Positions 9,192 to 50,418 of a stretch of 64,000 nt of DNA are shown here, piece by piece. The stretch covers positions 9,728 through 73,727 of the forward strand of contig SVTM01000010.1 in the NCBI GenBank assembly GCA_015063785.1, read 5' to 3'. The notes under the pieces were generated by a model. The model saw nothing but the letters and a program-made list of their open reading frames with translations, was not told the DNA's origin and did not search any database. Both the position numbers and the translations under genes were made by a program. This stretch comes from Oscillospiraceae bacterium (GTDB lineage Bacteria; Bacillota; Clostridia; Oscillospirales; CAG-382). The first letter of the stretch is position 1, and the number at the start of each line of letters is the position of its first letter.

Positions 9192-10844
9192 ATGAAACCA
9201 AAAATACTGACCTTTGGCGAAATAATATGGGACGTTTACGAAAACGATTCTTTCATCGGCGGAGCAGGACTTAATTTTGCTGCGCATTGTGCAAGATGCG
9301 GAGCGGAAAGTATGCTTTTTTCTGCTGTGGGCCGCGACGAGCTTGGAAAAAGGGCGATTGATTTTGTAAACTGTTTTGGCATGTCCTGTGAGAATATAAA
9401 AATTCTTGATAAACCGACGGGGCAGTGCACCGTCAGGCTCGACAATCACGGAACTCCCGACTTTTGCGTTATACAAGATGTGGCGTACGATAATATACCG
9501 ATCACCGATGACGATGTTTCTTTTATAAACCGAAGCTATGTCGACGCTTTGTATTTCGGAACTCTTATCCAGCGAAGCGCCGTTTCAAGGGCATCTTTGA
9601 AAAAACTATTATCGTCCTGCACTTTTAACGAGATAGTCTGTGATATAAATCTTCGCAAAAACTGTTACGATGCCGATTCGGTGCGTCTGTGCCTTGAAAA
9701 TGCCACGGTGCTCAAGGTGAGCATAGAGGAAGAAGAAAACCTTCGTCAAATGGATATGTACGCACCGTCTTGCGACACCCCCGAGGCTGTCTGCAGGGCA
9801 ATATGCGAGATGTTTTGCAATATAAAATACCTTCTTCTCACCTTGGGCGGCGACGGTGCGCTTTTGTACTGCTCAAAGAACGGCGAATTCTTCAGAGCCC
9901 AGGCAAAAAAATGCGTCGTTGCATCGACGGTGGGGGCAGGCGACAGCTTTGCTGCCGCATGGATATCCTCATATCTGTCGGGAAAAGATGCAAAAGAAGC
10001 GACAGAGATCGCCAACACCCTTGCATCGTTTGTCGTTTCCAAAACAGATGCTATTCCGCAGTATGCCTTTTGCGGCGGCAAAATAATCGAAAAGAGACCC
10101 ATGCTCCAGGCACACCGCGGAGTTTCCACCGATTGCCCCGAAAATACTATGTCGGCGTTTTGCGCCGCGGCAGAGCTTGGATACGAATATATCGAGCTCG
10201 ATCCAAATTATACCTCTGACAAGGTCATCGTCGTTCTGCACGATAAAAGTATAAACCGAACCGCTCGTCACCCCGACGGCCGCGAAATAGAAGAAAAAAT
10301 CAATATCGCCGATATCACTTATTCTCAGGCTCTCGCTTATGATTACGGCATCGGCTTTTCAAAGGATTTTTCGGGAGAAAAGCTGCCCACTCTTGACTCT
10401 GTGCTTTGCCTTGCAAAAGAAAAGGGTGTCACCGTGAAGATCGACAACAAGATCGAAAAATTTCCCGATGACGTTGCACAGGCGCTTTTTGATCTTGTGG
10501 AAAAGTATGGTTCAACTGTTGCTCTAACCTCGGCAAAGGTCGATACGATAAAGAGCTATGCCGCAAGATTTCCATCAGCGTATCTTCATTACGACGGCCC
10601 GGTGGACGATGAGGTTTTGCGCGAGCTTTCGCCGTATTCCGACCGTCTGACCGTTTGGCTTCCTCACTTTTCGCCCCTCACGTCGTGGGCAAAGGTGCCT
10701 TTTGCAGACGAGAAGCTATGCGCAAAGGTTAAGCAAGTGGCACAGCTTGGCATCTGGCTTATCGGCGATACCGAAAGTTACGCGCAGGTTTGTCAAAAAT
10801 ATTCCCCCGATATAATCGAAACCACAGGCGCCATAAAGCCTTAA
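9192..10844 (+). CDS. Fusion protein: PfkB-family sugar kinase (N-terminal) plus glycerophosphodiester phosphodiesterase domain (C-terminal)
   Basis: N-terminal GGAGLNFA and GAGDSFAAAW are PfkB motifs. From about nt 10090, QAHRGVS..PENT and ELD...VVLHD are GDPD catalytic motifs. Single uninterrupted 550-codon ORF. Confidence 0.7.
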   Translation: MKPKILTFGEIIWDVYENDSFIGGAGLNFAAHCARCGAESMLFSAVGRDELGKRAIDFVNCFGMSCENIKILDKPTGQCTVRLDNHGTPDFCVIQDVAYDNIPITDDDVSFINRSYVDALYFGTLIQRSAVSRASLKKLLSSCTFNEIVCDINLRKNCYDADSVRLCLENATVLKVSIEEEENLRQMDMYAPSCDTPEAVCRAICEMFCNIKYLLLTLGGDGALLYCSKNGEFFRAQAKKCVVASTVGAGDSFAAAWISSYLSGKDAKEATEIANTLASFVVSKTDAIPQYAFCGGKIIEKRPMLQAHRGVSTDCPENTMSAFCAAAELGYEYIELDPNYTSDKVIVVLHDKSINRTARHPDGREIEEKINIADITYSQALAYDYGIGFSKDFSGEKLPTLDSVLCLAKEKGVTVKIDNKIEKFPDDVAQALFDLVEKYGSTVALTSAKVDTIKSYAARFPSAYLHYDGPVDDEVLRELSPYSDRLTVWLPHFSPLTSWAKVPFADEKLCAKVKQVAQLGIWLIGDTESYAQVCQKYSPDIIETTGAIKP

Positions 10845-15019: not shown

Positions 15020-15095
15020 GGGAGTTTAGCTCAGCTGGGAGAGCGTCTGCCTTACAAGCAGGATGTCAGCGGTTCGATCCCGTTAACTCCCACCA
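15020..15095 (+). tRNA. tRNA-Val (anticodon TAC), CCA encoded
   Basis: Acceptor stem gggagtt/aactccc, D-loop agctcagctgggagagc, anticodon loop cTTACAa, T-arm ggttcgatcc, and 3' a-cca. Confidence 0.9.
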
Positions 15096-19292: not shown

Positions 19293-20084
19293 ATGGAGAT
19301 CAGAAACACCGCGACACCAAAGACCGCAGTAAAGGCCGTGCTTTTTGATTTTGACGGCACAATTTCAACCCTCAGATGCGGATGGGAAAAGGTGATGGGC
19401 CCCTTGTTTGAAGAAATTCTTGACGACGGAAAGTGTGACAAAACACTTCTTCGCCAAAAAATCGAGGAATACATCGACGAGTCTACGGGTATACAAACCA
19501 TTCTTCAGATGAAATGGCTGAAGGAGCAGGTCGAAAAGTCGGGAAGGCAAGCGCTTGACATCTGGGATTACAAAAAGATGTACAACGACCGCCTTATGCT
19601 TGATATAAAGAAAAAACTTTCGGATCTCGAAATCGGCAAGGCTTGTGCCGACGACTATCTTATGAGAGGTTCTGTGGAATTTCTGAAAGCGCTGAAAGAT
19701 AGGGGAGTCAAGATCTTCGTTGCCAGCGGCACAGATGATCCCGACGTACATAACGAAGCAAAAGCCCTTGGTGTTGATATCTATTTTGATGAAATAAAAG
19801 GTGCACCTCTTCACGAAGAAAGCTGCTCTAAGGAAGCGGTTATAAAAAGGCTTCTCGAAAGCGCGGGCTATTCCAACGACGAGCTTGCCGTATGTGGAGA
19901 CGGAAAAGTGGAGATTGCCCTTGGAAAAGAAAAGGGCGCACGCGCCATCGGCCTTGCAAGCTTTGAAAAAGAGCGCGGAGGCATTGACGAAGCAAAGAGA
20001 AAAAGACTTATAAACGCCGATGCCGATATCATCTGCGGCGATTTTCTTGAAAAAGACGAGCTTCTCGCTTTTCTCGGCTTCTGA
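19293..20084 (+). CDS. HAD-superfamily hydrolase/phosphatase
   Basis: Motif I FDFDGT, motif II ASGT, motif IV GDGKVE. Confidence 0.75.
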   Translation: MEIRNTATPKTAVKAVLFDFDGTISTLRCGWEKVMGPLFEEILDDGKCDKTLLRQKIEEYIDESTGIQTILQMKWLKEQVEKSGRQALDIWDYKKMYNDRLMLDIKKKLSDLEIGKACADDYLMRGSVEFLKALKDRGVKIFVASGTDDPDVHNEAKALGVDIYFDEIKGAPLHEESCSKEAVIKRLLESAGYSNDELAVCGDGKVEIALGKEKGARAIGLASFEKERGGIDEAKRKRLINADADIICGDFLEKDELLAFLGF

Positions 20085-20096
20085 AAGGAGAAAAAG

Positions 20097-21068
20097 ATGG
20101 AATACAAATATCTCGAGTTTGACAATATAAAAACTTATCCTGCGGCAATAAGACACAATCTTGTCCGCATTGACACCCTCAAAACGCCGGGAGTTGATGT
20201 AACGCCCGAATGGGACGGCGGCGAGGATTTCGAAACCCTCATCGATCGCATCGTCACTGCACGCAAAAACGGCAGACCCGTAATCTGGTCGCAGGGCGCC
20301 CACGTTATCAAAAACAGTCTGTCGCGCTATCTTATCGAACTTATGAAGGCAGGCATCATAACCCACATTTCGGGCAACGGTGCTTGCTCTATCCACGATT
20401 TCGAGTTGGCGTATCTTGGCGGCACCAGCGAGGATGTTCCCACCGCCATCGAGGATGGATCTTTCGGTATGTGGGAGGAAACGGGCAGATGGATGAATGA
20501 AGCTTTGCAGTATGGTGCAGAGCACGATATGGGCTATGGTGAATCGCTTGCCGTATATATCGATATGCACCCCGAAAAATTCCCCTACAAGGAAGATTGC
20601 ATCCTTTATCAGGCATACAAGAATAGCGTCTGCGCCACATATCACATCGCCCTCGGTACCGACATAATCCATCAGCATCCGATCGTTGACTTTGCTGCCA
20701 TCGGCAAGACCTCGGGCATTGATTTCCACAGAATGTGCGCATCGGTCTCCCAACTTGACGGCGGAGTGTATTTGAACTTCGGTTCCAGCGTAATCGGCCC
20801 CGAGGTGTTTTTGAAGGCGTTGTCGATTTCACGAAATCTCGGATATGACACTTTTAAGATAACTACGGCAAATTTTGACCTTATCAATCTCGGCAACTAC
20901 CGTACCAAGATCGGTTATGAAGACCCCAACTATTATTATCGTCCCAGAAAGAATATCGTCAACCGCCCTGTAAGCCGCGGTGGACTCGGCTGGCATTTTG
21001 TGGGCGATCATCAGCAAACCATTCCCAATCTGTACGATAAGGTAATGAAAAGGTGGAACGAAAAATGA
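20097..21068 (+). CDS. Conserved hypothetical protein (323 aa); possible deoxyhypusine-synthase-like fold, unassigned
   Basis: Good RBS (AGGAGAAAAAG) and tight packing between the HAD and kinase genes. The block GAHVIKNSLSRYLIELMKAGIITHISGNGACSIHDFE could not be assigned firmly. Confidence 0.6.
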   Translation: MEYKYLEFDNIKTYPAAIRHNLVRIDTLKTPGVDVTPEWDGGEDFETLIDRIVTARKNGRPVIWSQGAHVIKNSLSRYLIELMKAGIITHISGNGACSIHDFELAYLGGTSEDVPTAIEDGSFGMWEETGRWMNEALQYGAEHDMGYGESLAVYIDMHPEKFPYKEDCILYQAYKNSVCATYHIALGTDIIHQHPIVDFAAIGKTSGIDFHRMCASVSQLDGGVYLNFGSSVIGPEVFLKALSISRNLGYDTFKITTANFDLINLGNYRTKIGYEDPNYYYRPRKNIVNRPVSRGGLGWHFVGDHQQTIPNLYDKVMKRWNEK

Positions 21069-22021
21069 GCTTTGAAAAGTTAAATTGCGTCAAAGCTGCG
21101 GTCATCGGTGATTTTTGCCTTGACACCTATTGGTACGCCGATATGACTAAAAGCGTCCTCTCGCGAGAAACCCCCCATTATCCGCTTCCAATTTGTCGCG
21201 AGGTTATGTCGCCGGGTGGTGCAGGAAACGTGGCGGCAAACATTTCTGCCCTTTGCATCGAAAAGGTCTATGCCATAGGCGTTCGCGGAGATGACTGGCG
21301 TGGAGATTGCCTTGAAAAGGTACTCATTGAAAATGGTGTTGACACGTCGCTTTTTGTCAAGAGCGAGGGAAGATTTACCAACACATATATAAAACCCATG
21401 AAATACGGTTATTCGGGGCAGTGCTTCGAAAGCGCGCGCCTTGATTTTGAAGCGCAGGACGCGCTTGACGAAAAAAGCGAAAACGAGCTGCTCGGGAGGC
21501 TGGCTTTTGTAGCAGACAAGGTGGACGTCATCTGCGTTTGCGATCAGATGGCACACGGCTGTATCACCGAAAAAGTTCGCGATATGATATGCGAGCTCGG
21601 CAAGAGCGGAAAACGTATCATCGTCGACAGCCGCGACAGAATAGGACTTTATAAATACGTAACCGTAAAGCCCAACGAGATCGAAGCGGCACGCGCCACA
21701 GGCTTTGAGAATGAAGAAGAAAGTGTCAAGGCTCTTGAAAAAGAAACCTGCCGTCCGTCAATCGTCACCTGCGGCGATCGCGGATGCTACGTCTGTGAGG
21801 ATGGATGCGCAACTCTTGTGCCTGCATTTATCCGTGAGGGCGAGATAGATTTTTGCGGTGCAGGCGACACCTTCCTCTCGGCATTTGCGTGTTTTTCTGC
21901 TGCAGGATATAAAATGACAGATGCTGCACGCCACGCCAACGCCGCCAGCTGTGTAACGGTTCACAAGGTGGGTACAACAGGTACAGCATCAAGGGAAGAG
22001 ATAGAAAAAACAATAAGCTGA
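21065..22021 (+). CDS. PfkB-family sugar(-phosphate) kinase, HldE/RfaE domain-I-like
   Basis: VIGDFCLDTYWY...SPGGAGNVAAN and C-terminal GAGDTF. The ATG at 21065 overlaps the upstream stop (ATGA). Confidence 0.7.
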   Translation: MSFEKLNCVKAAVIGDFCLDTYWYADMTKSVLSRETPHYPLPICREVMSPGGAGNVAANISALCIEKVYAIGVRGDDWRGDCLEKVLIENGVDTSLFVKSEGRFTNTYIKPMKYGYSGQCFESARLDFEAQDALDEKSENELLGRLAFVADKVDVICVCDQMAHGCITEKVRDMICELGKSGKRIIVDSRDRIGLYKYVTVKPNEIEAARATGFENEEESVKALEKETCRPSIVTCGDRGCYVCEDGCATLVPAFIREGEIDFCGAGDTFLSAFACFSAAGYKMTDAARHANAASCVTVHKVGTTGTASREEIEKTIS

Positions 22022-22030
22022 TAAAATACA

Positions 22031-22061
22031 AAGAGGATGTGAAAAACACATCCTCTTTTTT
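22031..22061. terminator. Bidirectional terminator between convergent genes
   Basis: aagaggatgtg-aaaaa-cacatcctctt followed by TTTT. Confidence 0.7.
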
Positions 22062-22067
22062 GTCATA

Positions 22068-23066
22068 TCAAGCCATTGTTTCAAGCATTTTTTCTGTAAC
22101 TTTCCAGGGGCATTCTTCACCCTTTGCCCAACGGGCGTATTCTTTTGCCATGTATTCGCCCATGCGCGACACTTCGTTTCCGATGGAGCCTGCAATGTGA
22201 GGCGAAAGAAAAACGTTCGCAAGTTTGTAAAGTTTGCTGCCATCTTCGGGCGGTTCGGGCATAGTGACGTCAAGCAGAGCAATGCGCGACGGCTCCTTTT
22301 CGAGAGCTTCGATCAGGTCGTCCTCCACCACCTGCGCGCCGCGGCCTGTGTTGATAAAAGCGGCGTTGGGGGGCATTTTGTCAAAATATTTTTTATCAAG
22401 CATTCCCACAGTCTGCGGATTGTTGGCAAGATGATTTGAAACGACGGTACATTCTGAAAAAATTCTGTCAAGGCTTGTAAGTTCAATGCCAAGCTCGTCC
22501 GCCTTTTCCTGCGGCAAAAAAGGATCGTATGCCAAAATTTTGAAATTGTATGCACCGAGCATTTTTGCAACGAGCTTTCCGATCATTCCTACCCCCACAA
22601 GGCCTATCTTGTTACCGTAGTTTCCGGGGAAATCTGTCCTTTCGGATCTTCTCGTCCATGTGTCTTCGGTGCATCGGTGGAAGGTTTGGAAAAATCCTTT
22701 GTTTGCAAGGATTATCTGTGCCACAGTGTATTCTGCCACGGGAACTGCGTTTGCCGCCCATGCGCTGAAAATTTCAACTCCCGATTTCAGAAAAGGACGG
22801 GCAAAATATTGTACCGTGCCTGCTCCGTAAAAGAGAGCTTTGACTTTGCCAAAGTATTTTTTAATCTCATCTTCCGAAAGCTCGGGCATGCCCCAGGTGG
22901 AAAAAAGCACCTCCACCTCGCAAAGCTCGTCTTTCCTTTTTTCAGGCTCTGCAATATCAAAAAGCGGATCGATGAAATCCAGCGTCTTTTCAAGCACTGC
23001 TCTCGTTTCTTTTGTGTACACCGTTTCATAGTGGTGCTTGTTTTGGGTTATAAACATTGCCTTCAT
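22068..23066 (-). CDS. D-isomer-specific 2-hydroxyacid dehydrogenase family protein
   Basis: GLVGVGMIGKLVA NAD fold and SPHIAG. The ATG at 23066 follows AAGGAGAT; the track start at 23126 is rejected. Confidence 0.8.
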   Translation of the reverse strand: MKAMFITQNKHHYETVYTKETRAVLEKTLDFIDPLFDIAEPEKRKDELCEVEVLFSTWGMPELSEDEIKKYFGKVKALFYGAGTVQYFARPFLKSGVEIFSAWAANAVPVAEYTVAQIILANKGFFQTFHRCTEDTWTRRSERTDFPGNYGNKIGLVGVGMIGKLVAKMLGAYNFKILAYDPFLPQEKADELGIELTSLDRIFSECTVVSNHLANNPQTVGMLDKKYFDKMPPNAAFINTGRGAQVVEDDLIEALEKEPSRIALLDVTMPEPPEDGSKLYKLANVFLSPHIAGSIGNEVSRMGEYMAKEYARWAKGEECPWKVTEKMLETMA

Positions 23067-23213
23067 AGCTGGGATCTCCTTGTTGAAAGACATATTCTGA
23101 AATAACAATACCAAATTTTTTCTCACATGTCAACGCCTGTTTTTTAAAAAGCAGAATTTTGCCAAAAAAGTTGAAAAAAACTTATGTCTTGTTGCTTTTT
23201 CCTGCCTTTAATT

Positions 23214-23244
23214 CAAAAAAACAGGCCACACAAAAGTGGCCTGT
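23214..23244 (-). terminator. Intrinsic terminator after prs
   Basis: acaggccac-acaaaa-gtggcctgt with a T-run on the minus strand. Confidence 0.7.
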
Positions 23245-23250
23245 GAAAAA

Positions 23251-24378
23251 TTACATATTGTGGTTGTCGTCAAGATTTGCAAGCATTGTTTTGATCTTTT
23301 CAAAGGGATCAATGATGGTGCTGATCGAGCGGTTGATGTTGACGGCTTCGATGTAGTATGCGATGTACTTGAGAAGGTTAACTTCAACAAACCATTCTCT
23401 TTCGAGAAGCTCGGGAGCGTTGTAGATGGTGTTTGTGGTGTAAACCTTGTCAAACATACCTTCTTTGTAGTATCTGTCCATGGTCTCAAGACCGTTGCAG
23501 AAAAGACCGAAGGTGAAGAAACCAAAGATTCTTCTTGCTCCGCGGGTCTTGAGCTTGTCAAGAATGTGAAGGAAAGATTCGCCGGAGGAAGCGATGTCAT
23601 CAACAACAATAAGATCCTTGCCGTTTACGTCATCACCGAGATATTCGTGGGATGTAATGGGGTTTCTGCCGTCCTTGATGATAGAATAGTCACGCTTCTT
23701 GTAGAACATAGAAAGGGGAGTGCCGAGCACTGTGGAATAGTACATTCCGCGTCCAAGGGCTCCCTCATCGGGAGAAACGATCATAAGATTGTTCTTGTCG
23801 ATGTTCGATTCGTGACGGAAGAAGGATTTGAGCATCTGATAGGTGGGCATAAGGTTGTCAAATCCCTTAAGGGGAATTGCATTTCTTACTCTTTCGTCGT
23901 GGGCATCAAAGGTCATGATGTTGTCAACACCGATTGCTGCAAGATCAGCCAATGACTGTGCACAGTCAAGCGATTCGCGTCCGCCGACTCTGTGCTGACG
24001 GCTGGAATAAAGCATGGGCATTACAACCGAAATACGCTTTGCCTTACCGCCGATGGCAGAGATGATTCTCTTGAGATCGCAAAAATGCTCGTCGGGGGTG
24101 GTGGGAATGTCCATTCCGCGCATTTTGTAGGTTACGTTGTAGTTGTAGCAGTCTGCCACAATAAAAACGTCCTTGCCGCGGACAGATTCGGAAATAAGGC
24201 ATTTGCCTTCGCCTGTACCAAAGCGGGGAAAGGATGCCTTGATGATGTAATTACCGTCTTCCTTACGCCATTCGCCGATGTACTTCTGAATTCTTTCAAG
24301 CATCGCTTCGGTACCGCGTGTACCGATGATGGCAAGTTCGCCGTAGGGGACTTCTCTTGATAAATCCTGCATATTCAT
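23251..24378 (-). CDS. prs: Ribose-phosphate pyrophosphokinase (long, ~375-aa form)
   Basis: Blocks DAHD, VVDDIASSGES (PRPP loop) and RISVVMPMLYSSRQ. Confidence 0.85.
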   Translation of the reverse strand: MNMQDLSREVPYGELAIIGTRGTEAMLERIQKYIGEWRKEDGNYIIKASFPRFGTGEGKCLISESVRGKDVFIVADCYNYNVTYKMRGMDIPTTPDEHFCDLKRIISAIGGKAKRISVVMPMLYSSRQHRVGGRESLDCAQSLADLAAIGVDNIMTFDAHDERVRNAIPLKGFDNLMPTYQMLKSFFRHESNIDKNNLMIVSPDEGALGRGMYYSTVLGTPLSMFYKKRDYSIIKDGRNPITSHEYLGDDVNGKDLIVVDDIASSGESFLHILDKLKTRGARRIFGFFTFGLFCNGLETMDRYYKEGMFDKVYTTNTIYNAPELLEREWFVEVNLLKYIAYYIEAVNINRSISTIIDPFEKIKTMLANLDDNHNM

Positions 24379-24606: not shown

Positions 24607-24746
24607 ATATTCGAAGGTATATTGCCTTTTCTCCGAGAATGACGATTTTGTCCACAAAAAAGCCTGTTATATCTATGTACAATCGTCCTTTTCGATTTTA
24701 TAATCTCGTTAAAGAATACAACTTTGCATAAAAAGGAGAAAAAACT

Positions 24747-25850
24747 ATGATCAAGGCAGCAATAATCGGCTTTGCACACATGCACGTAAACGAAGTGGCA
24801 CTTTACATTTCCGAACAGCCGGATACAGAGCTTGTGGCGGTTGCTGATGCACCCACGGGCGTCGAGCAGATCGCACCCTTGCGCTACACTCCCGCTTGGA
24901 ACAAGCAGAACGTCTGCGAAAACTATTGCTCTAACTATTACGACAGCTACACAGAAATGCTTGACAAGGAAAAGCCCGAAATGGTATATATCCTCACCGA
25001 AAACTGCAAAAAGCCCGAAGTTGTCGAAGAATGTGCAAAAAGACATATAAACGTTTGTATCGAAAAGCCCATTGCCGTAAGCTTTGAAGAAGCACAGCGC
25101 ATCGAAAAGGCGGTTAAAGAATCGGGCATTACTGCCGTTGTCAACTGGCCTGTCGTATGGCGCCCCTACATCCACAAGATGAAGAAAGCTCTTGATGAAA
25201 AGATCGTCGGCGATCCCATCAAGCTCCGCTATATCAACGGCCACACAGGCCCCCTCGGCAAGGGTGCCAAGCACAGAGGTGTTTCTGCCAAGGCAGAAGA
25301 AATGACCGACGAGCAAAGAGCAAAGACCTGGTGGCACAATGACGTTTATGGCGGCGGTGTTTTCCTTGATATCTGCTGCTATGGCTGCTTCTTCTCAAAG
25401 TGGTTTATGGGCGAGGGCGAAAAGAGCGTTCTTTCCTACGGCGCAAACCTTAATACTCCCTATGGCGATACCGAAGACAACTTTGCAGCCATCGTTAAGT
25501 ATGACGGCAAAATGTCTGTTATCGAAGGCACCTGGACAACACCCCGTGCCGTTATTCCTTCGGGTCCCATGGTGCTCTGTACAGGTGGTGTCATCAACTG
25601 CACAGGCGGCGCCGAAAACGCTCCCGACGTTGAATGCTATGATATCTACGGTAACCTCGTTGAAATGCCTGCTCTTGATGAGCTCGGTGATAAGTATAAG
25701 AATATGCCCTGCCATTATGCAAATCACATAAAGACAGGCGAACCCATTCATGAAATGCTTTCTCTTGATGCCAATATGCGCGTTATGGCGATTCTTGACG
25801 CAGCAATCAAGAGCTCGCGCGGCGGTTCGGAGGCGAAGATCCTTGACTGA
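24747..25850 (+). CDS. Gfo/Idh/MocA-family NAD(P)-dependent oxidoreductase
   Basis: N-terminal MIKAAIIGFAHMH Rossmann start and an EKP motif (CIEKPIA). Confidence 0.8.
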   Translation: MIKAAIIGFAHMHVNEVALYISEQPDTELVAVADAPTGVEQIAPLRYTPAWNKQNVCENYCSNYYDSYTEMLDKEKPEMVYILTENCKKPEVVEECAKRHINVCIEKPIAVSFEEAQRIEKAVKESGITAVVNWPVVWRPYIHKMKKALDEKIVGDPIKLRYINGHTGPLGKGAKHRGVSAKAEEMTDEQRAKTWWHNDVYGGGVFLDICCYGCFFSKWFMGEGEKSVLSYGANLNTPYGDTEDNFAAIVKYDGKMSVIEGTWTTPRAVIPSGPMVLCTGGVINCTGGAENAPDVECYDIYGNLVEMPALDELGDKYKNMPCHYANHIKTGEPIHEMLSLDANMRVMAILDAAIKSSRGGSEAKILD

Positions 25851-26616
25851 TGCAATAGTTGCCGATATCCAGCGTGCATCCACCCACGACGGGCCGGGTA
25901 TTCGCACCACGGTGTTTTTCAAAGGTTGTACGCTTTCGTGTAAGTGGTGTCACAATCCCGAATGCATCGATCCAAATCCCCAGATACTTTTCTATCCCGA
26001 AAAATGCATCGGTTGCAAAATGTGCGATAAGGGTTGCTTCTCGGGAGCGCGCGTTGTCTGCGGCAAAAGCATGACCGCATCGCAGATCGCGGCAGAGGTT
26101 GCACAAGACATGGCATATTATGGCACCGAGGGCGGAGTCACCTTTTCGGGCGGCGAGCCTCTGATGCAAAAAGAAGCCTTGTCCGATGCCATTGATGAAT
26201 GTAAAAAGCTCGGGATAAAATGCGCCGTCGAAACCTCGCTTATCTACTACGATGAACAGATATTCAAAAAGCTCGATCTCGTCATGGCAGATCTTAAGAT
26301 CTGGAACAGCGAAACGCACAAAAAATACACGGGCGTCGGAAACGAAATAATAATCGAGCATTTCAAAAAGCTCGATACTCTCGGTGTTCCGATAATTGCC
26401 CGAACTCCCGTCATTCCCGAGATCGAACAGGGGATAGACAAGATTTCGGAGTTTATGAAAACTCTTAAAAACGTAATTTGTTATGAACTTCTGCCCTATC
26501 ACCCACTGGGCAATTCAAAAAGACAGGCGCTTGGAATTTTTGAACCCGACGGGTTCAGTGTGCCAAGCACAGAATACATGGAGGAGTTGAAACAATATGC
26601 CCACTGTAACAAATAA
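25843..26616 (+). CDS. Glycyl-radical enzyme activating protein (radical SAM)
   Basis: DGPGIRTTVFFKGCTLSCKWCHNPE (CxxxCxxC) plus one extra CIGCKMCDKGC cluster motif. TTG start at 25843 is 7 nt after GGAGGCG and overlaps the upstream stop by 8 nt. Confidence 0.85.
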   Translation: MTDAIVADIQRASTHDGPGIRTTVFFKGCTLSCKWCHNPECIDPNPQILFYPEKCIGCKMCDKGCFSGARVVCGKSMTASQIAAEVAQDMAYYGTEGGVTFSGGEPLMQKEALSDAIDECKKLGIKCAVETSLIYYDEQIFKKLDLVMADLKIWNSETHKKYTGVGNEIIIEHFKKLDTLGVPIIARTPVIPEIEQGIDKISEFMKTLKNVICYELLPYHPLGNSKRQALGIFEPDGFSVPSTEYMEELKQYAHCNK

Positions 26617-28831
26617 TTACACCTATGCTGACAGACTTGCCGCCATGCGCGAGACAAAGGTCCGTCACACTCTTGAAAAGAGAAAACAGAACGGCTTTAC
26701 CGACCTTGACGATTTCGGCACAGTTCCGATTTCCGAAGGTTATTCTGTTGAGCCTCTTTATAACAGCACAAACGGAAGCTTCTATGGCTATGACGGCATG
26801 TGCGAAAACTTTTGCCGTGTCATTGATGCCCACGAGCCCTATATTGATCCAAACGAAATGCTTTGTGGCAGATGGCGCGATATGCTTGTAAACTATCGTG
26901 GCGACCCTCACTATCTGCCCGATTGGCTCAAAAAGAATCCCAAAACCATGGAGCTTATGAAGTCTGCCACAAACCAGTGGAGCAAACGCTGGGACGAGCA
27001 AAGATTTCCTTATGATCACCTCAAGCCCCTGCAGGCAAAGTATAACATCGCCACAGGTATCGACGGCGACGCCCATTTTGCCTGCGATTATCGCATTGGC
27101 TTCGAACTTGGCTTTGGCGGTTTCCTTGAGAAAATTGAAAAATATCGCAAGATAAACCCCGACAAGAAGGACTTTTACGATGCAGAAGAACGCACTGTCA
27201 AGGCGATTATCCGCTTTGTCGAGCGTCATTGCGAAAAGCTTCGCGAGATGATCGCTGCCGAAGAAAACGCCGCTGTAAAAGAAAATCTTGAAACGATGCT
27301 TAAAACCTGCGAAAACATCACCTACGATGCTCCCAAGACCTTCCGCGAGGTATGTCAGTGGACAGCCTTCTTCAACTGCGCATCGCGTATTTACACTCGA
27401 GATGGCGCGGGCTTCCAGCTTGACGGACTTCTTTGGCCCTACTATCAGAACGATGTTAAGGCAGGCATTCTTGACGATGAAACCGCAAAGTTCCTCATCG
27501 CCAACCTCCTTCTCATCGATCCCCACTACTATCAGATCTCGGGTGTTGACGAGAATGATGTGGACAGAACAAACCATCTTTCCTACCTCATCCTCGAGGC
27601 TGCCGATTCCATCAACATCGCCTGCAACCTCACCGTCCGCGTTCACAAGAACTGTGACCGCGAATTCCAGCGCAAGTGTGTATATTATCTTATCAAGAAC
27701 AAGAACGCATGGCCCAGATTCTGCAACGACAAATCTCTTGCAGAGGGCTATATGAGAAACGGCGACATCGACAAAAAGACAGCTCGCGAGAGAATTGCCG
27801 TCGGATGTAACTGGATGTGCGTTCCCGGCAAGGAATTCCCGATGAACGACACCGTCAAGATCAATATTGCAAAGGTGCTTGACGAGTCGCTCAAGGATAT
27901 GAAGAACGAAGAAAATAAGAGCTCCGCACGCCTTTTCGAAATCTATGAATCCCACCTCAAAAAAGCTATTGAGGTAACTGCCGAGGGTATCAACCTCCAT
28001 ATCGACCACGCATGGGAAGTAACCCCCGAGCTTGTTATGAACCTTATGATGCACAACACAATCGAGCGCGGCGAAGATATTTCTCAGTGTGCCGAGCTTT
28101 ACACCGTCGGCATCGACGGCGCAGGTCTTGCCGTTGTTGCAGACTCGTTTGGCGCCATCGAATCGAGAATTGAGAACGAAGGGCTTGTTTCGTGGGAAAC
28201 ACTTTACGAAAACCTTGAAAACGATTTTGCTGACGAGAGAGTCCGCGCCATTATGTCGTCTGCCCCCAAGTATTGCCAGGGCGGCACAGTTTCGGACGCA
28301 TGGGCACAGAAGCTCACCGACAGTTGGGTTGCCGCCATCAAGGCGCAGAAGATGCCCGAGGGCAGAAAGCTTATTCCCGGCTGGTTCTCGTGGTCAAGAA
28401 CTATCGAGTACGGCTCCAAGGTAGGAGCCACCCCCAACGGAAGAAAGGCAACCACCCCCATATCTCACGGTGCAAACCCCAACGCGCATTTCAGAACAGA
28501 CGGTGCCCCCACGGCACAGTCCAACGGAATCGCATCTGTTCAGTGCGGCTACGGCAACACAGCCCCTCTTCAAATCGAATTTGACCCCATGGTCAAGGCG
28601 GATGACGAGGGAATCGATCTCGTACTCAACCTCATCCTTGGTCACTTCGAGCAGGGCGGAACCCTCATCAACATCAACGTCCTCGATAAGGAAAAGATCC
28701 TCAAGGCAAACGAAAATCCCGATCTTTACCCCGACCTCGTTGTCAGAGTAACAGGATTTACCGCATATTTTGCCAGCCTTTCTCCTCAGTTCAGACAGCT
28801 CGTTGTCGATAGATTCCTCACAGGTATTTGA
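26597..28831 (+). CDS. Glycyl radical enzyme (PFL-like fold), 744 aa, substrate unknown
   Basis: C-terminal VVRVTGFTAYF glycine-radical motif (Gly codon 28754-28756), ATPNGRKA block, and thiyl loop GCNWMCVPGK (27803-27832). The ATG overlaps the activase gene by 20 nt. Confidence 0.9.
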   Translation: MPTVTNNYTYADRLAAMRETKVRHTLEKRKQNGFTDLDDFGTVPISEGYSVEPLYNSTNGSFYGYDGMCENFCRVIDAHEPYIDPNEMLCGRWRDMLVNYRGDPHYLPDWLKKNPKTMELMKSATNQWSKRWDEQRFPYDHLKPLQAKYNIATGIDGDAHFACDYRIGFELGFGGFLEKIEKYRKINPDKKDFYDAEERTVKAIIRFVERHCEKLREMIAAEENAAVKENLETMLKTCENITYDAPKTFREVCQWTAFFNCASRIYTRDGAGFQLDGLLWPYYQNDVKAGILDDETAKFLIANLLLIDPHYYQISGVDENDVDRTNHLSYLILEAADSINIACNLTVRVHKNCDREFQRKCVYYLIKNKNAWPRFCNDKSLAEGYMRNGDIDKKTARERIAVGCNWMCVPGKEFPMNDTVKINIAKVLDESLKDMKNEENKSSARLFEIYESHLKKAIEVTAEGINLHIDHAWEVTPELVMNLMMHNTIERGEDISQCAELYTVGIDGAGLAVVADSFGAIESRIENEGLVSWETLYENLENDFADERVRAIMSSAPKYCQGGTVSDAWAQKLTDSWVAAIKAQKMPEGRKLIPGWFSWSRTIEYGSKVGATPNGRKATTPISHGANPNAHFRTDGAPTAQSNGIASVQCGYGNTAPLQIEFDPMVKADDEGIDLVLNLILGHFEQGGTLININVLDKEKILKANENPDLYPDLVVRVTGFTAYFASLSPQFRQLVVDRFLTGI

Positions 28832-28846
28832 TCAGATATCATAAAA

Positions 28847-28872
28847 AGAGAACCCTCGGGTTCTCTTTTTTG
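28847..28872 (+). terminator. Intrinsic terminator after the GRE gene
   Basis: agagaaccc-tc-gggttctct followed by a T-run. Confidence 0.7.
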
Positions 28873-29950: not shown

Positions 29951-30108
29951 ATTTCTGCCTTTCTTTCAGTCTTGCGCTTAACGTTTTTGGCGATACAACT
30001 CTATTATACAAAATGATTTGAAAAAGTAAATACAAATCGTGACATTTTTATAATTTATGGTGCAAACTATTGCAAAAAAACGCTCTTTGTGTTATCATTT
30101 TTTTGGTG

Positions 30109-31590
30109 ATGAAAATGTTTGAATATTGCTCCTGCGAAAGTGCAGGCATAAAAACAGAATACATACTCCGCTTTTTGAAATTTTTTGAAGAATATGGTAT
30201 TCCTGTCCACAGCATCCTTATGGCAAAGGGAAATTCGATCTTTCTCGAAGTCGATTATCCGCCCTTTTCGTGCGACAAGCTTCACAGAATGTACTCGGTT
30301 TCAAAAAGCTTTGTTTCAGCGGCGGTGGGACTGGCTGTTACTGAAGGACTGTTTTCGCTCGACGACAGGATAATCGAATTTTTCCCCGAATACCGAAACG
30401 AAAATACCGACGAAATGTACGATGCCGTCACCGTCCGCGATATGCTGACCATGCGCAGCAATATTGCAAGCTTTAATCCTTGGTGGCAGATATACGACGA
30501 CAGAGTGCGTGCGTACTATGCCCAGCAGACCGCCAAAGCCCCTACAACCCTTTTTTATTATGACAGCATGGGTTCGTACCTTCTCGGTTGTATCGTCGAA
30601 AAACTGACGGGAAAGACATTTCTTTCCTATCTCAAAGAAAAAGTGCTTTCAAAGATGGGCTTTTCTGACGAGAGCTATACGATATACGCCCCCGGTAAAT
30701 ACACCCTCGGCGATTCGGGTGTTATGTGTACCCCACGAGATCTTTTGATATTTGCCCGTTTAATAATGGATGGGGGAGTTTTTGACGGCGTAAGGTATAT
30801 TGACGAGGATTATATGAAAAACGCCGTTTCAAAACAGGTCGATTGTAATGCAGACGGAGTTTTTTCAAAGTATAAATCCCACGGCTACGGATATCTTATC
30901 TGGAAAATGCCAAACGACGGTTTTGCCCTTATCGGCATGGGTGGTCAGCTTGCCGTGTGCGACGTGAAACACGATCTCATTTTTGTTATGACTGCCGACT
31001 GTCAGGCAAGTGACGCGGTTGCGCGTGAGCTTATTCTCGACCATTTTTATAACGATATAATTGAAAATATTTCAGATGCCGCTCTTTGCGAAAACAAAAC
31101 TGCGCAGGACGAGCTTTGTGATTATATAAAATCGCAAAAACTCGTGTGCCAAAAAGGAAAACCGGTGTCTGCGCTTTCGCACAAAGTCTCGCTGAAAAAA
31201 TACCTGATACAAAAAAATCCCCTTGGCATCGAATGTTTTTCGCTTTATTTTGAGGCTGAAAAAGGCGTTCTCGTCTATCAAAAGGACGGAGCAAAAAAAC
31301 GCATAGAGTTTGGCATTTGCAAAAATGTCTTGTGTGATCTGCCCTGCGATATGAGAAATTCAGACGTTGCCGGCGAGATGGTGCAGGGGAGTTACAGCGC
31401 CGCCTGCTCGGGCGCGTGGGTGTCGGACAGCGAATTTGCACTGAAAATACAAATAACAGATACCTATCTCGGAAGCCTTAACGTCAGATTTTCATTCAAC
31501 GGCGGTATTGTCAGCGTTTGCATGAAAAAAAGCGGACAGTATATACTGTCGGGCTACGAAGGATATTATATTGGAAAAGAGGGAGAATGA
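30109..31590 (+). CDS. Serine hydrolase, beta-lactamase/PBP4-like (class C fold) family
   Basis: SVSKSF (SxxK) motif near the N-terminus. Start is ATG 30109 or 30115. Confidence 0.65.
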   Translation: MKMFEYCSCESAGIKTEYILRFLKFFEEYGIPVHSILMAKGNSIFLEVDYPPFSCDKLHRMYSVSKSFVSAAVGLAVTEGLFSLDDRIIEFFPEYRNENTDEMYDAVTVRDMLTMRSNIASFNPWWQIYDDRVRAYYAQQTAKAPTTLFYYDSMGSYLLGCIVEKLTGKTFLSYLKEKVLSKMGFSDESYTIYAPGKYTLGDSGVMCTPRDLLIFARLIMDGGVFDGVRYIDEDYMKNAVSKQVDCNADGVFSKYKSHGYGYLIWKMPNDGFALIGMGGQLAVCDVKHDLIFVMTADCQASDAVARELILDHFYNDIIENISDAALCENKTAQDELCDYIKSQKLVCQKGKPVSALSHKVSLKKYLIQKNPLGIECFSLYFEAEKGVLVYQKDGAKKRIEFGICKNVLCDLPCDMRNSDVAGEMVQGSYSAACSGAWVSDSEFALKIQITDTYLGSLNVRFSFNGGIVSVCMKKSGQYILSGYEGYYIGKEGE

Positions 31591-31591
31591 T

Positions 31592-32815
31592 ATGGCAGAA
31601 AGACTGACTGTGGCAATCGTCGGATGTGGCAATTTTGCCCGACATTTTGTCGAGCTGTTCAAAGCTCACCCGAATGTGGACAAGGTTTACGTCTGTGACC
31701 TTGTTGCAGAGCGCGCAAAGGAATATTCCGAAAAGTTCGGTGTTGAGATCATCGATACCTACGAGGATATTCTTGCTGACAGTTCTGTAAATTGCATCGC
31801 CAATTTCACCCAAAGGCACCTGCACGGCGACATTGTTATCCGCGCTCTTAACGCCGGCAAGCATGTGTACAGCGCAGTGCCCATGGCACCGACTGTTGAC
31901 GAATGCAAAAGAATTGTTGAGCTTGTAAAAGAAAAAAAGCTTATCTACATGATGGGCGAGACCTGCTATTACTACCCTTGTGCAATGTTTTGCCGCAAGA
32001 CCTACAAAGAGGGAAAATTTGGCGATTTCACTTATGGTGCCAGCCAGTACTATCACCACATCGATTCGATCAGCTACGGCAAACGCCCCGGCGAGGGAGG
32101 AATGCCGCCGTTGCTTTATCCCACCCATTCCACGGGTATGATACTGTCGGCTGTCGATTCGTATGTAAAAAGGGTGGTTTGTTTTGGCTATGAGGACAAA
32201 ACGGGCGACGGACGCTTTGAGATAGGCAAAAATCCGTGGGACAATGTTTTTTCAAATCAGTACGTGCTGATGCAACTGGCAAACGGCGGTACCGCCCGTG
32301 TCACAGAGGCACGCACCTTTGGTTGGATGAAGCCCAGCTCGTATATATCGGCGCTTTACGGCACCCGTGGCGGCTATGAATTCAGCAACGCCCAACACAT
32401 TCTCGTCGAAAAAGACTTTGACAGCGATGCCGAAAAGGTACGCCTGACCGACGTCAGCGATTACGTCAACACCGACGGAATGGTAAAAAATAAGCATCTG
32501 CCCGATTTCAAAAACCGTGTGGCAAATGCACAATGGCAATGGGACAACGTGTCCGAGGTGCAAAAGGAAGAGATAGAAAGGCTTCCTGCCGAATATGAGA
32601 ATATCGAAAACGGACACATGGCAACTCACAAATTTCTGATAGACGATTTTTGCAAGGCGGTTTTTGAAAATAAGCTCCCGATCCTCAACGCCTGGACAGC
32701 GGCACGCTTCACAATTCCCGGACTTGTGGCGATAGAATCTGCAAAACATGGAGGTATGCCCATGGACGTTCCCGATATGGGCGACGCTCCGGCTGAATGG
32801 GGGTCTGGACAATAA
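31592..32815 (+). CDS. Gfo/Idh/MocA-family oxidoreductase
   Basis: LTVAIVGCGNFARHF Rossmann start. The ATG at 31592 follows AAGAGGGAG, 1 nt after the upstream stop. Confidence 0.8.
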   Translation: MAERLTVAIVGCGNFARHFVELFKAHPNVDKVYVCDLVAERAKEYSEKFGVEIIDTYEDILADSSVNCIANFTQRHLHGDIVIRALNAGKHVYSAVPMAPTVDECKRIVELVKEKKLIYMMGETCYYYPCAMFCRKTYKEGKFGDFTYGASQYYHHIDSISYGKRPGEGGMPPLLYPTHSTGMILSAVDSYVKRVVCFGYEDKTGDGRFEIGKNPWDNVFSNQYVLMQLANGGTARVTEARTFGWMKPSSYISALYGTRGGYEFSNAQHILVEKDFDSDAEKVRLTDVSDYVNTDGMVKNKHLPDFKNRVANAQWQWDNVSEVQKEEIERLPAEYENIENGHMATHKFLIDDFCKAVFENKLPILNAWTAARFTIPGLVAIESAKHGGMPMDVPDMGDAPAEWGSGQ

Positions 32816-33698
32816 TGCTCGGATATTTACTTATTGTACTTACGGTTTTTTGCAACGTCTCAAAGGGCGGAGTGTCGAAAAAAGCAACTGCAAAGCTCAA
32901 CGGCATTGCCGAAACATCGATCTTTCGTTCATGCGCAATTTGATTTGCATTATTATCGGCGTTGTGATTGTATCTGCGTCAAAAATGTCTTTTTCCATGC
33001 CTGCCCAAGGCTGGTGGATATGCTTTGCCTCGGGCATAAGCATGAGCTTAAACTACATTGTTTGGCTTCTCTGCCTTAAGACCGACGCATATATGCTGGC
33101 AACCACGGCAAGCTCGTCAAGCTTTATCATAGCGGCGCTCAGCGGAGTATTGATCTTTGGCGAAAAAATATCGGTTTTCAAGGCAATAGCCTTTGCGCTT
33201 ATCATTCTTGCCGTCTATTTTATGGTCTGCTATCAGACAAAGACCTGTTGCCGTCTTAAGTTGCACGATTTTGTGATTCTTCTGCTTGTTTTTTTGTCTG
33301 CTGGCACAAATTCGCTTTGTCAAAAACTATTTACATTTTGTGTTCCCGGTTATTCGGTCAATCTTTTCACACTTTATACCTTTGTTTTCTCATGCGGCAT
33401 CCTTCTTGTCATCCGTCCGTTTTTCAGATGCGGGGAAAATGCAAAGATGCATGCCGTGAAATTTGCAAAGCTTTTGCCCATCATCCTGTACATGGGGGTT
33501 GCCTTGTACGGTGCAACCTTTTTCCTGTCCGAGGCGACACATCACCTTGACACTTTGGTCATCTATCCGCTCAACAGCGCGCTTACCCTTGTGGGCGGCG
33601 TCGTGATGGCGTGGATATGCTTTGGCGAAAAGCCCTCGCGTGACAGTATTATCGGCACGGTGCTTTCGCTCGGCGCACTTATTCTTTCAAGATTTTGA
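32815..33698 (+). pseudogene. DMT/EamA-like membrane transporter interrupted by a -1 frameshift near 32923-32925
   Basis: ATG 32815 (TAATG overlap) encodes MLGYLLIVLTVFCNVSKGG...AETSIF and then stops at 32941. The hydrophobic protein continues in the -1 frame as FMRNLICIIIGVVIV... to 33698. Confidence 0.5.
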
Positions 33699-50084: not shown

Positions 50085-50283
50085 CAGAGTGCTCGGTGCA
50101 TCGCAAAGGATTTTATTCCAGGTGTGTCGGGTGAAAAGGGAACACGGTGCGAACCCGTGACGATACCAGTCGCTGTATGCATCAAAGAACGCGCCCTTTC
50201 GTTGAAAAACGGTCATTGGGAAACTGAGAAGGCGTGGGCGCGGGCGTTTTTATTATGTGATGCGAGTCAAAAGACCTGCTCTG
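50085..50283 (+). promoter_or_regulatory. Cobalamin (B12) riboswitch aptamer
   Basis: GGTGAAAAGGGAACACGGTGCGAACCCGTG core, CGCTGTA, CATTGGGAA...GAGAAGG, and B12 box GAGTCAAAAGACCTGCT (50264-50280). P1 pairs cagag (50085-89) with ctctg (50279-83). Confidence 0.75.
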
Positions 50284-50418
50284 ATGCTCTTTCCGCACGT
50301 GCCACGGCACAGGAAAGGGTGGTTCTGTTCGGCGCTGACGCTTTTTTAAAAAAGTGATATCAGGGCTTTGTTGTCTTATCAAATTGCGTCCGAACGATTG
50401 TGTTGAGCGGAAAAACTG

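Follow-up and report, generated by a model that had tools for sequence, protein, structure and literature searches.

What does a glycyl radical enzyme (GRE) do when the loop that carries its catalytic cysteine holds a tryptophan at the position of the glutamate of the known eliminases and isomerases? This question is raised by a stretch of 64,000 nucleotides from an Oscillospiraceae bacterium (GenBank assembly GCA_015063785.1, contig SVTM01000010.1, positions 9,728 to 73,727 of the forward strand; hereinafter the window), in which three overlapping genes at 24747-28831 encode a Gfo/Idh/MocA (GFO) family oxidoreductase (Gfo1), a radical S-adenosylmethionine activase (AE1) and a GRE. Enzymes of this superfamily run the hardest reactions of anaerobic gut microbes, including the formation of trimethylamine, hydrogen sulfide, p-cresol and skatole and the use of hydroxyproline and anhydro-sugars, and to our knowledge each newly characterized GRE clade has so far led to new chemistry. 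As judged from sequence, the GRE of the window belongs to a large, monophyletic, uncharacterized clade that is separate from both the eliminases and isomerases with a C-x-E loop and the pyruvate formate-lyases (PFL) with a Cys-Cys pair, and it probably catalyzes a radical reaction, so far undescribed, in the anaerobic degradation of carbohydrates.

The protein is a member of the GRE superfamily (PFL-like division, IPR004184), with the ten-stranded barrel, the R-V-x-G motif, the Cys loop and a nearby activase all present. Both the PFL-like domain (PF02901, E 1e-90) and the Gly_radical domain (PF01228, E 3e-13) are recognized, and the AlphaFold2 model (pLDDT 92.4, pTM 0.93) matches all solved GREs in Foldseek with TM scores of 0.77-0.84 at 16-22% identity. 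The RVTGFTAYF motif begins at residue 717, with the predicted radical-bearing Gly720 located 24 residues from the C-terminus, and the ATPNGRKA block begins at residue 611; RVTG720F is kept in 121 of 121 close homologs. An earlier interpretation made without database searches (the sequence-only reading) had identified the protein as a GRE from the Gly loop and the ATPNGRKA block, which agrees with the Pfam domains, motifs and fold. The public names of the protein and its homologs go no further than 'formate acetyltransferase' or 'pyruvate formate lyase family protein'. Two other possibilities were considered and rejected: a decayed enzyme is ruled out by the strong purifying conservation and the intact Gly and Cys motifs, and an aminoacyl radical enzyme (AARE), in which Ala, Ser or Thr occupies the site of the glycine, by the retention of Gly720.

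The distinctive feature of this GRE is the Cys loop, encoded by GGA TGT AAC TGG ATG TGC GTT CCC GGC AAG. In the phmmer comparison with glycerol dehydratase (GD), 'vgcnwmcvpgk' is aligned with 'IGCVEPQKPGK' without gaps, and MAFFT places C418-C419 of Escherichia coli PflB over G403-C404, so that the invariant Cys404 is the counterpart of GD Cys433 and PflB Cys419. These alignments uphold the description of the loop as non-canonical, with Trp at the Glu site and no Cys-Cys pair; at the sequence level, neither a Glu nor a second Cys is restored, the loop being ungapped between the conserved G-C and P-G-K flanks. All GRE eliminases that cleave C-O, C-N or C-S bonds and all three GRE isomerases keep C-x-E, and two cysteines in the loop are found only in PFL and TdcE (PMC13450708); the Glu of C-x-E hydrogen-bonds or deprotonates a substrate hydroxyl (PMC13450708, PMC7077986). 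Assignment to the 1,2-eliminase/isomerase class by the C-x-E motif was rejected because the loop reads C-N-W, and the family threshold was missed as well. The additional Cys at +4, which the sequence-only reading had singled out, turned out to be a trait of the close family alone: Cys408 is present in 118 of 121 close homologs, is replaced by Ala or Ser in representatives of the subfamily with 42-52% identity and varies elsewhere. A catalytic role is unlikely given this lack of conservation across the clade, and Cys408 is probably irrelevant.

When 1.84 billion cluster representatives (50% identity) were searched, 4231 relatives were obtained, and the best 150 of these included 84 full-length proteins, among which the residue at Cys+2 is Trp in 26, Glu in 52 and another residue in 7. 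In the neighbor-joining distance tree of these top 150 representatives, rooted on E. coli PflB, the 26 C-x-W proteins are monophyletic in 99 of 100 bootstrap replicates; GD, YbiW and PflD fall within the C-x-E radiation and PflB is the most distant reference. All the reference enzymes thus lie outside the C-x-W clade, so that the GRE of the window does not fall into any characterized clade that shares its loop. The loop variants of the clade include GCNWM, GCHWx, GCFWY and GCQWx among others, with identity to the GRE of the window down to 24-30%, and Trp406 is invariant both in the 121 close relatives and in the 26 clade representatives. According to these alignments, Trp at Cys+2 is a character of the clade and not a peculiarity of one protein. 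Compared with C-x-E enzymes, the clade-specific invariant residues are Trp406, Asp418 and Glu478, and Glu413 and Asp164 are nearly invariant. The size of the protein, which the sequence-only reading had called PFL-like, does not indicate an affinity with PFL: short length (695-775 aa) is general to the whole C-x-W clade.

Comparison with characterized GREs gave no close assignment. The best match in the Protein Data Bank (PDB) is GD (phmmer E 4e-53), with other solved GREs close behind and no outlier, and a profile of the C-x-W clade scores all solved GREs alike, at 340-442 bits. Every NCBIfam GRE equivalog is far under its cut-off: 263.8 bits against 678.2 for TIGR01774 (PFL2/glycerol dehydratase subfamily), 139-198 bits against 1000-1109 for the HypD, HpsG, HpfG, CutC and PflD equivalogs, 91-95 bits against about 1100 for IAD and HPAD, and 77.6 bits against 994 for TIGR01255 (PFL). 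With phmmer, the E-values are 1e-19 for PflB, 4e-18 for MASS, 5e-13 for HPAD and 8e-9 for BSS. A GRE decarboxylase or X-succinate synthase was rejected, given that there is no close relationship to HPAD, IAD or BSS/MASS and no conserved small open reading frame (ORF) in the operon such as would encode the small subunits of HPAD and the X-succinate synthases. The Trp-loop class is listed neither in the June 2026 review of the GRE superfamily nor in the AARE paper; no paper that combines 'glycyl radical' with Gfo/MocA was found in the accessible literature, which excludes many subscription papers, and nothing relevant was found in the literature on 3-keto-glycosides.

The three genes are predicted to be a single transcription unit that combines the GRE with its own activase and a divergent GFO oxidoreductase. 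Gfo1 follows an A/T-rich gap of 368 bp and has a ribosome-binding site, AGGAG, 8 nt 5' of its ATG (24747). Its TGA stop (25848-25850) is overlapped by the TTG start of AE1 (25843), which is preceded at 8 nt by GGAGG, and the ATG of the GRE gene (26597), preceded by GGAGGAG, makes a 20-nt overlap with the end of AE1 at 26616. This overlapping three-gene organization, including the TTG and ATG starts, had been described from the letters alone and is confirmed by the ORFs and the DNA; overlaps of 8 nt and about 17-20 nt are also present in homologous operons. The hairpin that follows the GRE gene has a predicted RNA folding energy of -16.5 kcal/mol (z = -5.7), and none of 200 shuffled sequences is equally stable. 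The GC content around the operon equals that of the remainder of the window. A search of Rfam for a cis-acting RNA that could give a clue to the ligand found none near the operon; a cobalamin riboswitch and a tRNA are located elsewhere in the window.

The link to a GFO oxidoreductase is conserved far beyond this window. The synteny set consists of 80 loci (L001-L080), mostly from metagenome-assembled genomes (MAGs), with GREs that are 72-99% identical. Among the 71 loci with at least 2 kb of upstream sequence, the Gfo1-activase-GRE triad is found in the same order and on the same strand in 58, and in another 5 Gfo1 is followed by the GRE with no activase in between; in the reverse search, which started from Gfo1, the activase and GRE genes are downstream in all 12 loci with enough sequence. 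The coupling to a sugar-type dehydrogenase that had been suggested for the single locus is strongly supported by this synteny, and the triad is kept across gut Clostridia. Clustering of 1102 neighboring ORFs identified 222 GFO-family genes in 70 loci, about 3.2 per locus. In most genomes, the operon is larger and contains between two and five GFO genes, usually with one to three additional ones 5' of the triad, plus an AraC regulator and sometimes a TIM barrel protein and a PF12831 flavoprotein, the latter often 3' of the GRE. Two architectures recur, namely AraC< Gfo4> Gfo5> Gfo3> Gfo1> AE> GRE> and AraC< Gfo8> TIM> Gfo3> Gfo1> AE> GRE>, and some loci carry both. In the GRE tree, these types (Gfo4-Gfo5-Gfo3 and Gfo8-TIM-Gfo3) are interleaved rather than split, which suggests that Gfo1-AE-GRE is the constant core and the other GFO and TIM barrel genes are exchangeable feeders. 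Glycoside hydrolases of the GH2, GH5-like, GH30 and GH42-like families are variable but frequent neighbors.

The locus of a more distant relative, the 42%-identical GRE P0123, also has two GFO genes; the other neighbors there are a LacI-type regulator, a CUT1 sugar ABC transporter and a PF12831 flavoprotein. The GFO genes of this system are separated from the activase by a 145-aa ORF (L085, 7730-8167, plus strand) that has no Pfam match, does not occur in the window and could encode an accessory subunit.

The hosts of these loci come from the guts of ruminants, deer, rabbits and humans, and belong to Lachnospiraceae, Oscillospiraceae, Christensenellaceae and Acutalibacteraceae; the clade is abundant in gut assemblies from these hosts, the human ones including Hadza, Nepali and industrialized populations. 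The window matches a Clostridia MAG from water-buffalo colon (L001) at 99%, and the cultured Qingrenia yutianensis has the full operon of the second architecture, so that the reaction is directly testable. The GRE operon occurs twice, each time with a different GFO module on its 5' side, in a Tyzzerella MAG (L004/L006) and in the genomes of the pairs L008/L029 and L040/L054. One locus (L078) is labeled Bacteroidota and may be mis-binned. The GRE identity of 72-99% across families of Clostridia, together with the operon copies, suggests horizontal spread, with mis-binning as the other explanation for L078.

Gfo1 itself is a divergent member of its family, with both the N-terminal Rossmann domain and the C-terminal alpha/beta domain recognized. 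The EKP motif (E106-K107-P108) is invariant and D208...Y212 is kept, and the nucleotide-binding loop is atypical, reading G8-F-A-H11-M-H13 instead of G-x-G-x-x-G/A, with H11 and H13 invariant in 64 orthologs. The paralog Gfo5 has IGLEHVH at the dinucleotide loop. Among solved GFO structures, none aligns over the N-terminal loop segment of Gfo1 and none is a close relative, the best match being 3db2 at 51-62 bits. The next most constant neighbor, Gfo3, is homologous over its full length to DgpA, a glycoside 3-oxidoreductase from gut bacteria (E 7e-53), and DgpA is also the best solved match of Gfo4 and of Gfo8 and GFO2. The GFO proteins further show partial NCBIfam matches to IolG, levoglucosan dehydrogenase and sugar 3-dehydrogenases. 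The TIM barrel protein of some operons resembles hydroxypyruvate/2-oxo-tetronate isomerases (Hyi/OtnI-like), and solved relatives of the PF12831 flavoprotein, like those of Gfo1, were matched only at the level of the FAD- or NAD-binding motif. GFO2 of the window, located 2.7 kb 3' of the GRE operon, is 38-44% identical to Gfo8, a gene of the GRE operon in other genomes, and is a possible member of the GRE system.

The activase AE1 contains the Radical_SAM and Fer4_12 domains of Pfam and scores 244.6 bits against the cut-off of 174 for TIGR02494 (GRE-activating protein). Its cysteines are arranged as C29-x3-C33-x2-C36, followed by the insert C55-x2-C-x2-C-x3-C65, with C41 and C73 also conserved among 67 family members. 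The insert is shortened in this family, with one CX2CX2CX3C motif versus two four-Cys motifs in related activases; this single motif, together with C41 and C73, suggests that the AE1-family activases carry a single auxiliary Fe-S cluster. An activase adjoins the GRE in 70 of the 80 loci. In L010, L021, L028, L068 and L072, Gfo1 is directly followed by the GRE with no activase gene in between; no AE1-family activase was detected anywhere within about 22 kb of L010, L021, L068 and L072, and L028 is an 8-kb contig that starts at Gfo1 and has little 5' sequence. The window encodes a second GRE activase, AE2, convergent with the GRE gene and 40% identical to AE1, which has two full ferredoxin-type CX2CX2CX3C motifs and is HypD-activase-like (361 bits, cut-off 425). 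No second GRE that could be its partner was found in the 64-kb window, so AE2 is an orphan; the AE2-GRE arrangement occurs elsewhere only in the near-identical L001.

If Trp406 has replaced the loop base, residues elsewhere in the barrel might take over acid/base functions, and candidates were mapped from the GD alignment and published strand descriptions, that is, by position in the sequence rather than in three dimensions. Strands beta1, beta2, beta6 and beta8 furnish the active-site residues of solved GREs (PMC8473560, PMC7077986). His160 on beta1 is present in 120 of 121 close homologs, is kept across the C-x-W clade and occurs in 50 of 52 C-x-E representatives; in known GREs, this site provides an acid/base residue or a substrate contact (PMC7077986, PMC8473560, PMC13450708). 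On beta6, the strand that contributes Thr502 and Tyr506 of CutC and Tyr450 of HypD to the active site (PMC8473560), Asp418 is invariant in the C-x-W clade versus 33% of the C-x-E representatives. The site of Glu478 is occupied in C-x-E enzymes by Thr or Ser within P-(T/S)-P-F-L-S, and Arg268-Asp269 is specific to the GCNWM subfamily. The GD counterpart of Asp418 is Asp447, whose role in that enzyme we presume, a text search having failed to find it. Taken together, the pocket is predicted to be unusually aromatic and to retain several acid/base candidates.

Our best guess for the chemistry is that a keto- or anhydro-sugar undergoes radical C-O cleavage or isomerization, with His160, Asp418, Asp269 or Glu478 taking over as acid/base residue. 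AE1 and S-adenosylmethionine would generate a radical on Gly720, which would move to Cys404, and the resulting thiyl radical would abstract hydrogen from a sugar-derived substrate, namely a keto-sugar, anhydro-sugar, glycoside or cyclitol that is made or consumed by the GFO enzymes. This substrate might be held in the aromatic pocket formed by Tyr311, Tyr312, Trp406, Trp596, Phe597 and Trp599, with Trp406 serving as a stacking wall rather than a base. Proton transfer would fall to His160 (beta1) and Asp418 (beta6), both outside the loop, and perhaps to Asp269 (beta2) or Glu478, such that an adjacent C-O bond, to a hydroxyl, ring or ether oxygen, is broken as in the GRE dehydratases and the YbiW/PflD isomerases. 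The product radical would regain hydrogen from Cys404, and Gfo1 could reduce the new carbonyl or, alternatively, produce the carbonyl of the substrate. We give this scheme of sugar-linked radical C-O cleavage by a GRE of a new clade slightly better than an even chance of being right; the bulk of that confidence attaches to the new clade and the link of its radical enzyme to carbohydrates, and far less to the exact bond that is broken.

Several observations count against this proposal. The characterized GREs that cleave C-O, C-N and C-S bonds all keep the loop Glu, and its loss argues that the chemistry may differ. GFO genes are missing around the more distant C-x-W enzymes P0125, P0154 and P0121, the first of which is accompanied by a nitroreductase, a URO-D family protein and a methyltransferase; hence Trp is a clade-level trait and not one specific to sugars, and these contexts are uninformative on the substrate of the subfamily in the window. 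The window itself contains only the minimal core, with no DgpA-like gene, and no conserved transporter, kinase or aldolase was found among the 1102 neighboring ORFs, which leaves the pathway logic incomplete.

The absence of the loop Glu would also fit chemistry other than 1,2-elimination, and the DgpA connection of Gfo3, Gfo4 and Gfo8 suggests one such route, in which a DgpA-like GFO enzyme would oxidize C3 of a glycoside such as a plant C-glycoside and the GRE would cleave a C-C bond by radical beta-scission, either between sugar and aglycone or within the sugar. The GRE would then replace a metal-dependent DgpBC-type lyase, and indeed the operons lack a conserved lyase of the DgpB/C type, the TIM barrel protein of some of them being Hyi/OtnI-like; the predicted pocket is rich in aromatic residues that could bind the aglycone or the sugar ring, and the hosts inhabit herbivore and high-fiber human guts. 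We nevertheless consider a radical C-C lyase unlikely. The known C-deglycosylation is radical-free (PMC8563793), Gfo3 is only a distant relative of DgpA and is missing from the window and several other loci, the GREs that cleave C-C bonds by attack of a thiyl on a carbonyl (PFL and TdcE) need two cysteines, of which one is conserved here, and there are no conserved aglycone-processing genes nearby.

A radical isomerase or epimerase that acts without elimination would not require an adjacent general base either, which agrees with the missing Glu. Such an enzyme would take hydrogen off a carbon of a sugar or cyclitol and return it to the other face or to a neighboring carbon, with the GFO enzymes processing the isomer. 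Gene clusters with multiple GFO members typically serve the interconversion of inositols and rare sugars; there are also the partial matches to IolG, levoglucosan dehydrogenase and sugar 3-dehydrogenases, and the TIM barrel neighbor is from an isomerase subfamily. However, pairs of GFO redox enzymes and TIM barrel epimerases perform such isomerizations without radicals, redelivery of hydrogen to the opposite face ordinarily calls for another hydrogen donor, whereas no further conserved Cys or Tyr was found beside Cys404, and each of the three GRE isomerases known so far breaks a bond and retains C-x-E (PMC13450708), all of which makes this alternative quite unlikely. The idea that the GRE is simply a pyruvate or 2-ketoacid formate-lyase, as the homologs' public names and the PflB-like length would have it, is almost certainly wrong in view of the TIGR01255 score, the remote position of PflB in the tree with a match limited to the C-terminal third, and the presence of GFO genes in place of a focA, pta and ack context; such a function was rejected already at the sequence level for want of a Cys-Cys pair (PflB C418 is Gly403 here).

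Tentatively, with an appreciable though less than even chance of being right, the C-x-W enzymes can be viewed as an eighth functional class of GREs with chemistry unprecedented in the superfamily. One possibility is that DgpA-like oxidoreductases supply C-glycosides or 3-keto-sugars, which then undergo radical cleavage of a C-C bond or ring opening; another is catalysis in which the invariant Trp beside the thiyl radical is itself redox-active. If so, a widespread, unrecognized route for breakdown of plant glycans or polyphenol glycosides would exist in herbivore and human guts. The clade deserves attention: it accounts for about one third of the full-length relatives of the GRE at the level of 50%-identity clusters, and it lacks a residue that the present mechanistic framework holds to be universal for bond-cleaving GREs other than PFL. 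Its reaction, once known, will be a test of whether the base is relocatable or dispensable and will probably uncover a new step in the anaerobic catabolism of carbohydrates or glycosides.

The features of the operon and the other genes that we noted in the window are collected in the table. The genes immediately 5' of the operon (19293-24378) are linked to the GRE in no genome other than L001. On the 3' side, GFO2 belongs to a separate overlapping unit.

Table. Positions of the predicted features in the window, with the operon and its motifs first, followed by other elements.
Feature	Coordinates	Strand	Basis or remark
Promoter-like TGTACA-17-TATAAT	24676..24704	+	Consensus scan; pattern match only, weak
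Gfo1, divergent GFO/IDH/MocA oxidoreductase, 367 aa	24747..25850	+	PF01408 (1.6e-17), PF22725, PF02894
AE1, predicted GRE-activating radical-SAM enzyme, 257 aa from TTG	25843..26616	+	Pfam, NCBIfam; ORF from ATG begins at 25750
GRE, C-x-W clade, 744 aa	26597..28831	+	Pfam, AlphaFold2, Foldseek, tree
His160 codon	27074..27076	+	GD His164, HypD His160; beta1; phmmer alignment
Arg268-Asp269			beta2; region that gives HypD its catalytic Asp278, matched as a region and not residue for residue
Tyr311			beta3; GD Phe333, HypD Ser334
Tyr312			beta3; GD Tyr339, HypD Phe340
Cys loop G-C404-N-W406-M-C408-V-P-G-K	27803..27832	+	Cys404, predicted thiyl site; Trp406 replaces Glu
Asp418 codon (Cys+14)	27848..27850	+	GD Asp447; beta6; candidate relocated acid/base residue
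Glu478 codon	28028..28030	+	Invariant in C-x-W clade; GD Leu519
Trp596-Phe597-Ser598-Trp599			beta8; region of GD Tyr640
Gly loop R-V-T-G720-F-T-A-Y-F	28745..28771	+	Predicted glycyl radical site; Pfam Gly_radical, alignment
Intrinsic terminator hairpin	28843..28870	+	12 nt past the GRE stop; flanked by A-run and T-run
AE2, second GRE activase, 277 aa	29117..29950	-	
Overlapping unit with GFO2	30070..33698	+	
Beta-lactamase-fold protein	30070..31590	+	In the GFO2 unit
GFO2, GFO/IDH/MocA, 414 aa	31571..32815	+	Best solved relative DgpA, E 6e-18
EamA-type transporter	32748..33698	+	In the GFO2 unit
GH78 alpha-L-rhamnosidase	5903..7363	+	
PfkB kinase fused to glycerophosphodiester phosphodiesterase domain	9192..10844	+	
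tRNA gene	15020..15092	+	
Genes 5' of the operon	19293..24378		HAD-like protein, 323-aa protein (next row), PfkB kinase, 2-hydroxyacid dehydrogenase (-), PRPP-synthetase-like protein (-)
323-aa protein	20097..21068		No Pfam match
Cobalamin riboswitch	50097..50297	+	62 bits; upstream of genes including 51321-53999
Fusion of two ABC ATPase domains and an ECF S-component, 892 aa	51321..53999		
2028-aa ORF	57466..63552	-	Sole Pfam match a C-terminal calcineurin-like phosphoesterase; first ~1700 residues unannotated

Among known systems, PflB and TdcE share with the GRE of the window the superfamily, a similar length and the position of the catalytic cysteine, and differ in the Cys-Cys pair, in a phmmer match confined to the C-terminal third and in genomic context. 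The GRE eliminases are closer. With GD (DhaB1 of C. butyricum, PDB 1R8W/1R9D), propanediol dehydratase, HypD, CutC, IslA/IseG and HpsG, the Foldseek TM scores are 0.77-0.82, and the Gly loop, the position of the catalytic Cys, the flanking G and P-G-K and the adjoining dedicated activase are shared; the beta1 His (GD His164) and the beta6 Asp (GD Asp447) are additionally shared with GD. In contrast, the Glu of their C-x-E is Trp here, identity is only about 20%, the clade is separate, and the GRE of the window falls 40-100 residues short of their length and has deletions near beta2 and beta3. Furthermore, unlike the GRE eliminase systems, its operon contains neither microcompartment nor aldehyde dehydrogenase genes.

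The 'oxidize C3, then eliminate' routes of the DgpA/DgpBC type, which act on C-glycosides, levoglucosan and 3-keto-glycosides, resemble the GRE operons in that a DgpA homolog and GFO enzymes are found in most of the latter as well. Gfo1 itself has no close characterized relative, and the xylose-isomerase-like TIM barrel protein, sometimes present in the GRE operons, is optional and Hyi/OtnI-like, not DgpC-like. The DgpBC-type lyases are ionic, metal-dependent and non-radical, whereas the best-conserved genes of the operons described here are those of the GRE and its activase.

The greatest structural likeness is to the YbiW/PflD isomerases (TM 0.83-0.84, 8YJO/8ID0), which open the ring of 1,5-anhydrohexitol-6-phosphate in 'anhydroglycolysis'. 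These enzymes keep C-x-E (GCIET/GCVEL) and sit within the C-x-E radiation, in contrast to the Trp of the GRE in the window; their partners are phosphotransferase system (PTS) components and fructose-6-phosphate aldolase rather than GFO oxidoreductases, and their substrates are phosphorylated, whereas the GRE operons include no conserved kinase or PTS gene. As GREs that act on a pyranose-like sugar and are encoded in a carbohydrate operon without microcompartments, YbiW and PflD nonetheless provide the best functional analogy for the GRE of the window.

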